64,000 nucleotides of DNA from Eledone cirrhosa (Eukaryota), in assembly GCA_964016885.1 (NCBI GenBank), contig OZ024756.1:18290001-18354000 (forward strand), read 5' to 3'. Below, piece after piece: positions 28,501 to 62,732 of the stretch (positions are counted from its first letter, which is position 1; each line of letters begins with the position of its first letter). The notes under the pieces are model-generated. The model made no database searches. It had not been told where the DNA came from and saw only the letters and a list, made by a program, of their open reading frames with translations. A program made the position numbers and the translations under genes.

Positions 28501-28990
28501 ATTTATTTATATATATATATATATAAATAAATATATATATATATATATATTTATTTATATATATATATATATAAATAAATATATATATATATATATATTT
28601 ATTTATATATATATATATATAAATAAATATATATATATATATATATATATATATATATATATATATTTATTTATATATATATATATATTTATTTATATAT
28701 ATATATATATAAATAAATATATATATATATATAAATAAATATATATATATATATATATATATATATATATATATATATTTATTTATATATATATATATAT
28801 TTATTTATATATATATATATATATTTTTATATATATTTATATATATATATATATATATATATATTTATTTATATATATATATATATTTATTTATATATAT
28901 ATATATATATTTTTATATATATATATATATATTTTTATATATATATATATATATTTTTATATATATATATATATATTTTTATATATATAT
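19592..28990. repeat. Giant interrupted (TA)n microsatellite array
   Basis: About 9.4 kb of TA, interrupted by CAC, later by TT, finally by TAAA/TTTA. Confidence 0.97.
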
Positions 28991-29528
28991 AAAATAAAGT
29001 TAAATAAAAGTCAAATGATTAAAATTTAGCTTCGTTTATTACTGCTATATATATTTCAGTGACAGCCATCTTTGGCTGTGACCTCTTCAGGCAGTTTGAA
29101 TTAGTATGGTATAGACAAGTACATATGTTGTTTAGGTGTATGATATTGTCAATACTCTGATATGCCCAGTTCCTTGCTGGGTTGTTAATCCACTGCGGAA
29201 CTGGAGTCATATGACTCCAGTTCCGCAGTGAATTAACAACCCAGCAAGGAACTGGGCATATCAGAGTATTGACAATATCATACACCTAAACAACATATGT
29301 ACTTGTCTATACCATACTAATTCAAACTGCCTGAAGAGGTCACAGCCAAAGATGGCTGTCACTGAAATATATATAGCAGTAATAACGAAGCTAAATTTTA
29401 ATCATTTGACTTTTATTTAACTTTATTTTACACTACTCCGGAGTAACCAAACCAACCTGCGCACTTCGTCGAGTGCTCCAACCTGCATACTGAGGTGTTG
29501 GTATACAACCAACATAAACTCAAAATCT
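28990..29528 (+). mobile_element. Fold-back non-autonomous Penelope-like element with hammerhead motifs (copy A1)
   Basis: Near-perfect palindrome 28990-29430 (about 220-bp arms, centre 29210/29211, one substitution and one indel) plus a 98-bp tail with ACTCC and GTCGAGTGCT; flanked by (TA)n. Confidence 0.7.
29326..29380 (+). ncRNA. Minimal type I hammerhead ribozyme motif (mirror copy on the minus strand in the left arm)
   Basis: actgc-CTGAAGA-ggtcacagcc aaagat ggctgtcact-GAAA-tatata-TA-gcagt: stem I actgc/gcagt, stem II hairpin, palindromic stem III ATATATAT. Confidence 0.7.
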
Positions 29529-32500
29529 ATTTATATATATATATATTTTTATATATATATATATATTTATATATATATATATATATTTTTATATATATAT
29601 ATATATATTTATATATATATATATTTTTATATATATATATATATTTTTATATATATATATATTTTTATATATATATATATTTTTATATATATATATATTT
29701 TTATATATATATATATTTTTATATATATATATATTTTTATATATATATTTTTATATATATATATTTATATATATATATTTATATATATATATTTATATAT
29801 ATATATTTATATATATATATTTATATATATATTTATATATATATATATATATTTATATATATATATATTTATATATATATATATATATTTATATATATAT
29901 ATATATATATTTATATATATATATTTATATATATTTATATATATTTATATATATATATATTTATATATATATATTTATATATATTTATATATATATATAT
30001 ATTTATATATATATATATATATATATATTTTTATATATATATATTTATATATATATATATATTTATATATATATATATTTATATATATATTTATATATAT
30101 ATATATATTTATATATATATTTATATATATATATATATTTATATATATTTATATATATATATATTTATATATATATATATATTTATATATATATATATAT
30201 TTATATATATATATATAAATATATATATATATATATATATTTAAAAATATATATATATATAAATATATATATATATATATATTTAAATATATATATATAT
30301 ATATAAATATATATATATATTTATATATATATATATATTTATATATATATATATATATATATAAATATATATATATATTTATATATATATATTTATATAT
30401 ATATATATATATTTATATATATATATATATATTTAAATATATATATATATTTATATATATATATATATTTATATATATATATATATTTATATATATATAT
30501 ATATATATTTAAATATATATATATATTTATATATATATATATATTTATATATATATATATATATATATAAATATATATATATATTTATATATATATATAT
30601 ATATTTATATATATATATATATATATATATATATATATTTATATATATATATATATTTAAATATATATATATATATATATATTTATATATATATAGATAT
30701 TTAAATATATATATATATATATATATTTATATATATATAGATATTTAAATATATATATATATATATATTTATATTTATATATATATAGATATTTATATAG
30801 ATATTTATATATATATTGATATTTATATATATATATATAGATATTTATATATATATATATATATATTTATATATATATTTATATATATATATTTATATAT
30901 ATATAGATATTTATATATATATATATATATTTATATATATATAGATATTTATATATATATATATATATTTATATATATATATTTATATATATATATATAT
31001 ATATATATATATTTATATATATATATTTATATATATATATTTATATATATATATTTATATATATATATATATATATATATATATATATATATATATATTT
31101 ATATATATATATATATAGATATTTATATATATATATATATATTTATATATATATATATATATTTATATATATATATATATATATATATTTATATATATAT
31201 ATATATTTATATATATATATATATTTATATATATATATATATATATATTTATATATATATATATATATTTATATATTTATATATATATATATATATTTAT
31301 ATATTTATATTTATATATTTATATATATATATATATATTTATATATATATATTTATATATATATATTTATATATATATTTATATATATATTTATATATAT
31401 ATATATATTTATATTTATATATATATATTTATATATTTATATATATATTTATATTTATATATATATTTATATATATATATTTATATATATATATATATTT
31501 ATATATATATTTATATATATATATATATTTATATATATATTTATATATATATATATATATAAATATATATATATTTATATATATATATATATATATATAT
31601 AAATATATATATATATATAAATATATATATATTTATATATATATTTATATATATATATATATTTATATATATATATATATTTATATATATATATATATAT
31701 TTATATATATATATTTATATATATATATTTATATATATATTTATATATATATATATATTTATATATATATTTATATATATATATATATTTATATATATAT
31801 TTATATATATATATTTATATATATATTTATATATATATATATATTTATATATATATATTTATATATATATTTATATATATATATATATATTTATATATAT
31901 ATTTATATATATATATATATATTTATATATATATTTATATATATATTTATATATATATTTATATATATATATATATATATATATATATATATATTTATAT
32001 ATATATATATATTTATATATATATTTATATATATATTTATATATATATATATATTTATATATATATTTATATATATATATATATTTATATATATATTTAT
32101 ATATATATTTATATATATATATTTATATTTATATATATATTTATATATATTTATATATATATTTACATATATATTTATATATATATATATATTTATATAT
32201 ATATATATATATTTATATATTTATATATATATATATATTTATATATATATATATATATTTATATATATATATTTATATATTTATATATATATATATATTT
32301 ATATATATATATTTATATTTATATATATATATTTATATATTTATATATTTATATATATATATATATTTATATATATATATATATATTTATATATATTTAT
32401 ATATATATATATATTTATATATATATATATATATTTATATATATATATATATTTATATATATATATATATATTTATATATATATATATATTTATATATAT

Positions 32501-33551
32501 ATATATATATTTATATATATATTTATATATATATATATATATTTATATATATATATATATATTTATATATATATATATATATTTATATATATATATATAT
32601 ATTTATATATATATATATATATATATATATATTTATATATATATATTTATATATATATTTATATATATATTTATATATATATATATATATTTATATATAT
32701 ATTTATATATATATATATATATTTATATATATATTTATATATATATTTATATATATATATTTATATATATATATTTATATATATATATATATATTTATAT
32801 ATATATATATTTATATATATATATATATATATATATATTTATATATATATATATATATTTATATATATATTTATATATATATTTATATATATATATATAT
32901 ATTTATATATATATATATATATATATATATATATTTATATATATATATATATATATATATATTTATATATATATATATATATATATATATTTATATATAT
33001 ATTTATATATATATTTATATATATATTTATATATATATTTATATATATATTTATATATATATTTATATATATATTTATATATATATTTATATATATATAT
33101 ATATATATATATTTATATATTTATATTTATATTTATATATATATTTATATATATATTTATATATTTATATATATATTTATATATTTATATATATATTTAT
33201 ATATTTATATTTATATATATATATATTTATATTTATATATATATTTATATATATATTTATATATATATATATATTTATATTTATATATATATATATATAT
33301 ATATTTATATATATATATTTATATATATATATATATATTTATATATATATATTTATATTTATATATATATTTATATATTTATATATATATTTATATATTT
33401 ATATATATATTTATATATTTATATATATATTTATATATTTATATATATATTTATATATATATATATATATTTATATATATATATATATATTTATATATAT
33501 ATATATATATATTTATATATATATATATATATTTATATATATTTATATATA
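29529..33551. repeat. Interrupted (TA)n array
   Basis: TA with TT, AA and GA interruptions. Confidence 0.97.
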
Positions 33552-60444: not shown

Positions 60445-60655
60445 TCCTTTGTCAGTGTTGAACAAACGAGCAACGATGGTTGCTGGACACTACGGCTTAA
60501 TACGGGATGTTTGTTTACAAACACACCGAGCATTGTAATAAATGTTCGGTGAATCCATACGTACATATATATATGTATGCATGTATGTATATATATATAC
60601 ATACTACTGTACGTCTGTATACATATATGTATGTACGTCTACATACTTATATTTA

Positions 60656-61682
60656 TATATATATATTTATATATATTTATATATATTTAAATATATATTT
60701 ATATTTATATATATATATTTATATATATATATATATATATTTATATTTATATATATATTTATATATATATATATTTATATATTTATTTATATATTTATAT
60801 ATATATTTATATATATATATATTTATATATTTATATATATATTTATATATTTATATATATATATATTTATATTTATATATATATATTTATATATATTTAT
60901 ATTAATATATTTATATATATATATATATATTTATATATATATATATTTATATATTTATATATATTTATATATTTATATATATTTATATATTTATATATTT
61001 ATATATTTATATATATATATATTTATATTTATATATATATTTATATTTATATATATATATATATTTATATATATATATATATTTATGTATATATATATAT
61101 TTATATATATTTATATATTTATATTTTAATATTTATATATATTTATATTTATATATTTATATATATATTTTTATATTTATATATATATTTTTATATTTAT
61201 ATATATATATATATTTATATATATTTATATATATATATATATATATTTATATATATTTATATATATATATATATTTATATTTATATATATTTATATATAT
61301 ATATATATTTATATATATTTATATTTATATATATTTATATATTTATATTTATATATATTTATATATTTATATATATTTATATATTTATATATATTTATAT
61401 TTATATATATATTTATATTTATATATTTATATATATATATATATTGATATATATATATTTATATAGATATATATATTTATATTTATATATATATTTATAT
61501 TTATATATTTATATATATATATATATTGATATATATATATTTATATAGATATATATATTTATATATATATTTATATATATATATATATATATTTATATAT
61601 ATTTATATATATATATATTTATATATATATATATATTTATATTTATATATATATATATATATATATTTATATTTATATATTT
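60656..61682. repeat. Interrupted (TA)n array
   Basis: Directly visible. Confidence 0.96.
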
Positions 61683-62270
61683 ATCATCATCATCATCATC
61701 ATCATCATCAACGTTTAACGTCCGTGTTCCACGCTTGCATGGGTTTGGACGGGGGTAGTCCCACTTGAGGCAAGAGTGATTGTCTTGCTCGCATAGGACT
61801 GTCTGGCAGGTTTTCTACAGTTGGATGCCCTTCCTAACACCAACCACATTTACAGTGTGGGTCTGGGAGGTTTTTACCGTGTTGCCTACACGGCCACATT
61901 ACAGCGTGGACTGTGTGTTTTTTTGTCGTGACACCTACACGATCTCATTTGTTTCGGCCTCGATGGCGCGGCACCAACATAACTTTACATAGAACGGGGT
62001 GGTGTGGATGGGGTGGGGGCGGGGGTGGTGGGACGGGGTGTATTTTGTTAGAGGTGCCTACTGGCTGGAGTAGGTTTTACTATATATTTAGGTAAGGCGG
62101 GTCTTCTCTGTTACTGAGTACCGCCAAAGGTCTCGGTCCAGTGACATTGTTTATATATATATATATTTATATATATATATTTATATATATATATATTTAT
62201 ATTTATATATATTTATATATATATATATTTATATTTATATATATATATATATATATATATATATATATAT

Positions 62271-62732
62271 GGAAAGTTATATTTAAATTGTTGGGTTACA
62301 ACTAGTAAATATTTATAACTGATATAAAAGCACTCGACAAATATTTGGAGTATATTTACAATATTAAAGAAATGGAAACTATATTTATAAAACCATATCT
62401 ATTTCATTATATATATTTCAGGGATATCATATTAACAATATGCTATGCCTTCCTCAGACAAAATACAATATAAACAGTTTTATAGATAAATAGATTCGAC
62501 ATACCGTAACAACATCGACTTGTATTTGAAAAGGTTGATTTGGTACCAAATCAACCTTTTCAAATACAAGTCGATGTTGTTACGGTATGTCGAATCTATT
62601 TATCTATAAAACTGTTTATATTGTATTTTGTCTGAGGAAGGCATAGCATATTGTTAATATGATATCCCTGAAATATATATAATGAAATAGATATGGTTTT
62701 ATAAATATAGTTTCCATTTATTTAATATTGTA
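62271..62732 (-). mobile_element. Fold-back hammerhead element (family D), tail on the left
   Basis: Palindrome 62357-62732 (188-bp arms, centre ggt|acc at 62544/62545, one mismatch seen); motif tattttgt-CTGAGGA-stem II-GAAA-tatata-TA-atgaaata (62624-62689 and its mirror); tail reads ACTCC...GTCGAGTGCT on the minus strand. Confidence 0.72.

Follow-up and report, generated by a model that had tools for sequence, protein, structure and literature searches.

An inverted arm, an optional tail, a TA-repeat target and a hammerhead ribozyme are all published features of Penelope-like elements (PLEs). The Hydra clade of PLEs with a C-terminal endonuclease (EN+) includes Hydra-1_Obim of Octopus bimaculoides (Craig et al. 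2021, PMC8557442), and the origin of the inverted ends and of the tail is named as an open question both there and in PMC3846280. The protein of a Poseidon PLE cuts and extends both target strands in vitro and starts at two internal sites bounding the tail, although that account neither defines a signal for these starts nor connects them with inversions (PMC11167929). Here, we analyzed a window of 64,000 nucleotides (the whole stretch of DNA under study; positions 18290001-18354000 of contig OZ024756.1) in the 3.0-Gb genome of Eledone cirrhosa, which contains palindromes and related copies of element families lettered A, B, C, D, E and G. We propose that the palindromes are truncated ends of Hydra-clade PLEs inserted in (TA)n, and that they form when two reverse transcriptase (RT)-endonucleases, one at each of two hairpins, copy a single RNA from both cut strands, whereupon the two cDNAs join at their 3′ ends. 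We put the probability of this reading at roughly 65%.

The palindromes of families A, B and C lie where an earlier analysis of the bare sequence (the original prediction) had placed them, described as near-perfect and spacerless. In family A (28990-29430), arms of 221 and 220 nt share 219 identical positions. The inverted tail-less arm (28990-29210, minus strand; hammerhead 29041-29095) stops at the inner 3′ end, 5 nt before a conserved hairpin termed hairpin 1, and the sense arm (29209-29430, plus strand) begins at the A of a TCA motif, which is the 5′ hot spot of the family and a putative RNA start. Family C (62357-62732; arms of 188 and 188 nt, 187 identical) has the minus strand as sense in its tail-bearing arm (62272-62544; hammerhead 62400-62465, hairpin 1 at 62351-62329, tail to 62272), and its tail-less arm occupies 62545-62732 on the plus strand (hammerhead 62624-62689). 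Family B (55355-55646; arms of 141 and 141 nt, 138 identical) comprises an inverted tail-less arm (55355-55495, minus strand) and a sense arm with tail (55506-55731, plus strand; hammerhead 55540-55602, hairpin 1 at 55652-55682); since 10 nt separate these arms, this palindrome is not spacerless. Each of the three extends on one side only into a tail (29431-29527 in A, 97 nt on the plus strand; 55647-55731 in B; 62272-62356 in C), and all these tails fall outside the coordinates originally given.

A copy noted at 33552 is indeed a separate second A insertion with a hammerhead (33552-33939, plus strand; sense arm with hammerhead 33737-33791, then tail), but its inverted tail-less arm is short, about 75 nt, and lacks a complete ribozyme. 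Both A insertions are hosted by a (TA)n-rich array at 19594-35552. The predicted preference for TA repeats and the presence of an inverted partial copy were borne out in these families, and the arms are multi-copy, with at least 1014 A, 1738 B, 1251 C, 232 D and 1017 E candidates genome-wide, which are first-look counts and lower bounds. The fold centre varies between copies of the same family; thus, the palindrome does not travel as a unit.

The suspected origin from PLE pseudo-long terminal repeats (pseudo-LTRs) proved correct. In tandem copies, the sequences of A, B and C lead into a PLE open reading frame (ORF). Linkage of the arms to an ORF with RT and GIY-YIG domains was found elsewhere in the genome for A, B, C, D and G, whereas the window itself, as had been stated, holds no PLE ORF by tblastn with the C protein. 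Tandem copies of family A continue past the tail into such an ORF, which carries two frameshifts in the copy read. Family C retains an intact ORF of 735 aa in tandem units of 3.83-3.86 kb; nine of its 150 scored copies lie in open frames of 744-747 aa, and the last 160 residues, used as the query, are 99-100% identical across all 150. Family B adjoins a broken ORF downstream, family G has an ORF downstream in 2 of 17 loci, and in family D at least 6 of 20 loci show an endonuclease end in the same orientation, about 1 kb upstream, the endonuclease end being the only part seen.

The C protein contains the motifs YRDD and YVGST, and its structure model (mean predicted local distance difference test score, pLDDT, 91) finds telomerase TERT (3du5, E 3.8e-9) as the best structural match. 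A Pfam scan and a PDB sequence search with the PLE protein gave no match, and its closest named relative is from Argonauta hians (39% identity). Motifs of the Hydra clade are present as RWK and DKT in A and as RWR and DKT in B and C, and the A and C proteins possess a CxCx5C linker, no CCHH, and CxxC and CxH around conserved E and N residues. The clade's pseudo-LTR hammerhead and (TA)n insertion are found as well, as are the general PLE traits of pseudo-LTRs from partial tandems, an inverted 5′-truncated copy and an optional tail. A length below 3 kb, which is a tendency of the clade and not diagnostic, is not seen, the tandem periods being about 4.1 kb (A), 3.85 kb (C) and at least 3.1 kb (B). 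The ORF linkage, the TERT match of the C model and the Hydra motifs, on which the clade assignment rests, together identify A-D and G, as far as sequence can tell, as 5′-truncated pseudo-LTR ends of autonomous Hydra-clade PLEs. A "Neptune-like" label was dropped after comparison with the Hydra-clade definition in PMC8557442. The elements had been taken for non-autonomous, which does not hold for A-D, where ORF-bearing full forms exist, but does hold for E, a non-coding 422-bp unit.

In families A-D, copies end at two clusters of 3′ ends. Counted from the first base of hairpin 1, these lie at -5 and +91 in A, -6 and +87 in B, 0 and +79 in C, and 0 and +78 in D, where the exact base is blurred by the TA repeats and the outer values are reference ends set at observed ends. 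The tail running from the inner to the outer end is 78-97 nt long here. Each 3′ end stands 0-11 nt upstream of a conserved bulged hairpin (NCUC-stem-2-nt bulge-GAGN). Hairpin 1, just past the inner end, reads ACTC-stem-2-nt bulge-GAGT (29435-29477, plus strand, in A), and hairpin 2 (GCTC...GAGC) follows right behind the outer end in ORF-bearing copies, at 99 (A), 97 (B) or 90 nt (C) from hairpin 1. A second hairpin was predicted for G and then found at two loci.

The same arrangement recurs in relatives. Among 78 metagenome loci with 32-38% identity, we scored the 46 in which the match begins near the N-terminus; the leader between ribozyme and start codon contains two hairpins in 30 of these, one in 10 and none in 6, while shuffled leaders (n = 920) gave one hairpin in 18 cases and two in none. 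Hairpin spacing in the relatives is 55-83 nt, and both hairpins also stand at the start of the published Hydra-1_Ajap sequence. When the relatives' downstream pseudo-LTRs were aligned (22 in number), 12 stopped at a contig end; of the 10 left, seven end at -6 to 0 of a hairpin and one continues into the next unit. As a separate observation, in relatives L230, L233, L240, L262 and L292 the ORF-bearing copies begin, or (TA)n interrupts, just 5′ of hairpin 1 or 2.

For 67 distinct hairpins picked purely by sequence, stem pairs 5, 6 and 7 form in 66, 48 and 45 compared with 51.6, 28.5 and 27.1 after shuffling, a level reached by 0 of 2000 shuffles; pair 5 forms only with the 2-nt bulge. In an alignment of 37 rows (33 longer-looped hairpins plus four from the window), 96.4% of cells pair and 38 change on both sides, a result reached by 0 of 500 shuffles, and pairing falls to 21-53% in slid controls, although related sequences can beat shuffles in this test. 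The closing pair is G-C, A-U or U-A. We infer that the hairpins act as RNA, and they are predicted to bind the PLE protein.

According to the proposed mechanism, one protein would be seated at, and would start from, each of the two hairpins, and each strand of the TA cut would prime one cDNA. The template would be one uncleaved RNA that can be copied twice, PLE RTs not being known to possess RNase H. The cDNA ends would then pair through short inverted microhomologies, each serving as primer for the second strand of the other. Short copies would likely derive from proteins on hairpins in the 5′ leader of the mRNA, running out at a capped TCA start, often with an extra G. A broader version, in which a clade-wide twin-hairpin RNA signal seats two RTs, twin priming at the TA cut yields the tail, the inversion and both second strands, and tandem retrozymes such as E are passengers, is evenly balanced in our judgement.

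Two starts on one RNA predict that each insertion has a single tail. Of the 85 distinct head-to-head pairs, 83 follow this pattern and two have two tails; one of the exceptions forms the upstream repeat of a longer element that lacks a tail at its far end. Tail-free queries returned one tail in 33 of 34 cases (A 12/12; D 11/11 and 5/6; B 5/5); these sets cover A, B and D, with A mostly represented by older copies, and a tail-free C query gave no set. Long insertions were tested as a prediction (n = 9): all seven that could be resolved have one inner and one outer end, and of the other two, one is interrupted and one is duplicated together with its flank. One tail per insertion would also arise without a second priming event if one cDNA, or an antisense template as in PMC3846280, were copied back on itself by self-priming and the endonuclease trimmed the second arm at a DNA site beside hairpin 1. 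The endonuclease of D. virilis requires the tail for DNA cleavage (as cited in PMC11167929), in line with such trimming. However, the second hairpin behind the outer end is then left unexplained, solo tail-less copies exist, and stem covariation with variable loops suits a single strand better than duplex DNA.

The reach of the arms bears on the same question. In 46 of the 83 one-tailed pairs the two arms end no more than 10 nt apart, frequently at short palindromes, as expected from a fold-back; the tail arm is longer in 20, and in 17 the tail-less arm is longer by more than 10 nt. In several insertions the arms do not overlap, and some combine an arm that consists of tail only with a body. 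If later deletions are not common, self-priming explains neither the 17 tail-less arms reaching further 5′ nor those tail-only arms whose partner body stops at the family's 5′ hot spot (L152, L161, L032 and L051); we regard self-priming as rather unlikely overall.

Either arm being the longer, together with one tail per insertion, would also fit two cDNAs with separate RNA templates, brought together by an asymmetric pair of proteins with one inner and one outer start. Yet arms are 98-100% alike in young families, and both B arms in the window carry a core mutation that the other B copies shown do not have. One template predicts this likeness, with gene conversion as an alternative. Tail arms that stop near the inner start, moreover, fit a collision on one RNA. 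Two templates are thus distinctly improbable in our view, and the copying of one RNA from two hairpins remains the preferred reading.

An inverted C duplication that includes its flank (locus L408/L409, G000:C3:140.04 Mb) may be a later rearrangement or an assembly fold-back, and the original prediction had named read fold-backs as a danger to the palindromes in general. In the palindromes, however, the two arms are set apart by substitutions, by defined end points that are not the same, and by their flanks. Logan contigs, moreover, contain both the fold-back junction of A and the tail-less end at TA (in at most two samples of one study, possibly the assembled sample). An artefact is therefore excluded for the class, and we attach a negligible probability to it.

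With respect to the ribozymes, a descriptor scan (stem I of at least 5 bp) found eight hammerhead folds in the window compared with none in each of 100 local shuffles, which confirms the type I motifs. These eight are both arms of A, B and C, the copy at 33742 and E. The scan also reproduced all four predicted cut positions, after 29375 in A (29326-29380, plus strand; palindromic stem III, fold z -2.7), 55590 in B, 60438 in E and 62681 in the tail-less arm of C. Two further cores had been listed, of which 60402-60444 (E) is a full fold, whereas 56796-56858 (D) is truncated within stem I, with 3 bp left. The arm core GAA(A) is typical of family B as GAAA, but the B copy in the window reads GAAC in both arms and is a core mutant. 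The catalytic core and three-way fold are present in A, C, E and family-typical B, D and G, but not in three families as they stand in the window, namely B (GAAC), D (stem I of 3 bp) and G (which lacks the 5′ half). Across 179 sequences, 317 descriptor hits fell into 11 clusters, with 0 in one local shuffle. Since stem II pairing is built into the descriptor, it is no independent proof. Covariation in stem I had been expected among copies and was seen in E (two two-sided changes) but not in A-D (zero), while core positions are less variable than other positions in all five families (A-E); in this tally, arms and overlapping loci were counted separately.

Intact hammerhead cores in most copies, together with the lack of an ORF in the window, are what the original prediction would lead one to expect, namely non-autonomous retrozyme-like palindromes that are transcribed as hairpins, cleave themselves and move as units; the description also holds partly for E, which is non-coding and forms arrays of eight or more units. 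In contrast, A-D and G are ends of ORF-bearing PLEs, so that the claimed origin is refuted for A-D, the centres vary between copies, and 0 of 15 long C copies begin at the ribozyme cut site. In a read-through palindrome RNA, ribozyme formation would cost 83-102 kcal/mol, compared with 0.7-4.3 kcal/mol in the sense arm alone. A long hairpin RNA with a self-cleaving motif is therefore doubtful, since the ribozyme would be masked, and from the palindrome centre outwards each arm would yield plain sense RNA. We give this account very little credence, and the hammerhead appears to be a passenger in these short copies. PLE hammerheads show low cleavage in vitro (PMC4209133). Rfam gave no match at gathering score on the window and only sub-threshold microRNA hairpins on 54900-63000. 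A further hammerhead candidate at 43199-43280 was rejected, as it fails a tighter descriptor and lies antisense inside a PLE ORF fragment; this fragment (43187-43530, minus strand), situated in TA repeats, resembles the N-terminal coding part of the Hydra PLE of locus L418.

At the 5′ side, 32 of 148 scored arms and solo copies begin exactly at the A of the TCA motif, and 15 of these 32 carry a preceding G (p 2e-4 against an assumed 0.18). PLE pseudo-LTRs are known to contain an initiator (Inr)-like TCACT (PMC3846280), and an internal promoter has been described (PMC2377424). Combined with these reports, the pile-up of starts with an extra G makes a capped RNA start likely for the short copies. 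A splice acceptor at the 5′ hot spots was considered and rejected, because A-D have no AG there and G copies include the AG. The family G hammerhead (loci L410, L418 and L424) is of the U3-A8 type; its loop II is long, its stem III is stable, and it folds as the minimum-energy structure. Its 5′ hot spot (the A of TTAGT/TCAGT) lies within loop II, with a TATA-like box about 29 nt upstream; hence, short G copies, and any RNA begun there, would lack the 5′ half of the core.

Several observations weigh against two hairpin-seated starts on one RNA. In the relatives, hairpins are missing from 6 of 46 leaders, a pair occurs in 2 of 46 ORF-internal controls, and 2 of the 10 pseudo-LTRs end elsewhere than at a hairpin. 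Single hairpins fold weakly (z about -1), and their invariant core could instead be a DNA site for the endonuclease. Family E follows the one-tail rule without the hairpin. Locus L055 has two tails, and L205 scores tail-less on both arms, although an insertion that came later seems to have displaced its tail. Tail-bearing queries, moreover, were used to find the first sets of A, B and C. Later deletions at palindrome centres could make the tail-less arm appear longer. The idea of an RNA start at the TCA motif is weaker: of 15 long C copies extending to the start codon, none has its 5′ end there and six continue further upstream; some of the extra G residues in the 15 of 32 copies may reflect microhomology between arms. 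Finally, the Poseidon study observed no difference in start site between the two strands (PMC11167929).

Family E is represented in the window by about 1.2 units of a 422-bp non-coding tandem (60159-60652, plus strand). Elsewhere, it forms arrays of eight or more units with a longest ATG ORF of 71 aa, the units being 99.2% alike within arrays and 96.7% between arrays. Two fixed 3′ ends lie 56 nt apart, and head-to-head arrays have one of each (loci L126-L148): the one-tail rule holds in all nine arrays whose two ends could both be seen, L144 (odd) and L133 lying outside this count. Neither the hairpin motif nor a partner ORF turned up for E, for which no dedicated search was run. As short non-coding tandem units with one type I hammerhead each, the E elements are retrozyme-like, and they would likely be non-autonomous units moved by the same kind of two-start reaction.

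Further copies are found nearby. Family G, a Hydra pseudo-LTR end absent from the original prediction, occurs at 55752-55888 (plus strand; 3′ half of a U3-A8 hammerhead, hairpin 1 at 55816, tail) and as a second insertion with a short inverted tail-less arm at 56592-56757 (minus strand). Family D is present as a lone tail-less copy truncated within stem I (56763-56861, minus strand) and as a fragment with hairpin 1 and tail but no ribozyme (54294-54433, plus strand). A B-like mini fold-back at 55963-56110 (plus strand) is truncated 3′ of the ribozyme and keeps a hairpin-like motif and tail, and a lone hairpin-like tail motif (ACTC...GAGTACT) stands at 35738-35770. Directly beside B, at 55310-55345 and likewise at loci L002, L005 and L030, lies the end of another PLE family, with a GIY-YIG of the "VYIGET" type and its own hammerhead-like motif; at these places, PLE ends nest within one another's TA flanks.

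The window also contains an intronless ORF at 16103-17176 (minus strand) with two RNA recognition motif (RRM) domains and a glycine-rich tail, which is hnRNP A1-like (Pfam RRM_1 E 3.7e-38) and may be a gene or a retrocopy. Long interspersed nuclear element (LINE)-type RT fragments were recognized by motif at 37189-39411 (plus strand) and, on the minus strand, at 40646-41893, 59272-60030 and about 4900-5900. Tandem repeats occupy 1233-2185 (a 48-bp array of 20 copies), 52342-52921 (73/97/123-bp repeats) and 48875-49021 (a 49-bp repeat).

The elements, like their ribozymes, are typical representatives of a known clade, whereas the twin-hairpin signal and the one-tail rule appear to be new. Neither twin hairpins nor twin priming in PLEs was found in the literature searched, which excluded most subscription papers, among them the 2005-2006 PLE reviews, and whose figures could show the motif; the word "hairpin" is absent from the main and supplement text of PMC8557442. 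A pair of 25-35 nt hairpins with covarying stems, a young family with an intact ORF and a countable one-tail rule offer mutable targets and sharp predictions. If the proposed mechanism is correct, second-strand synthesis in telomerase's closest mobile relatives would be unlike that of LINEs or R2, and the hairpins would provide a compact tag with which cargo RNA could be written into TA repeats.

In LINE-1 twin priming, both target strands prime on one RNA and the 5′ part becomes inverted; the second primer anneals at chance sites, and the two parts do not overlap. In contrast, the proposed second start here has a constant position next to a conserved hairpin, and most insertions contain two copies of the same stretch. 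With the Hydra clade (PMC8557442), the present elements share a single RT and GIY-YIG ORF, RWK/RWR, DKT, the CxCx5C linker, no CCHH, the pseudo-LTR hammerhead, the (TA)n target, partial tandems, the inverted 5′-truncated copy and the tail at one end. They differ in unit length (3.1-4.1 kb, compared with generally less than 3 kb) and in the tail, which measures 78-97 nt here, with a hairpin spacing of 55-83 nt in relatives, compared with 30-40 bp in published PLEs. The hammerheads agree with the minimal type I ribozymes of PLEs (Cervera and De la Pena 2014, PMC4209133) in the core, the short palindromic helix III, opposite-strand pairs 100-700 bp apart and the U3-A8 variant (family G), and nothing essential differs. 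Family E resembles the non-LTR retrozymes (Cervera and De la Pena 2020, PMC7229834; bioRxiv 10.64898/2026.07.22.740005), which are likewise short non-coding tandems with one type I hammerhead per unit, but its 422-bp unit carries marks of PLE insertion, namely two 3′ ends, head-to-head arrays and a TA target.

The closest biochemical parallel is the Poseidon element PAc of Anolis carolinensis (Frangieh et al. 2024, PMC11167929), with two internal RT starts that bound the tail, an AT-rich target, cutting and extension of both strands, and an uncleaved RNA template, which for our elements is inferred. PAc starts in an AC-rich stem loop inside the ORF, whereas the putative starts here lie in the 5′ leader, before two matching hairpins, and the accessible text of the PAc study leaves inverted arms unexplained. 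Head-to-head pseudo-LTRs, palindromic junctions, a tail on one inverted pseudo-LTR and the Inr-like TCACT are shared with Penelope of Adineta vaga (Arkhipova et al. 2013, PMC3846280). For that element, self-priming on an antisense template was proposed, while the arm statistics obtained here favour two sense-templated cDNAs.

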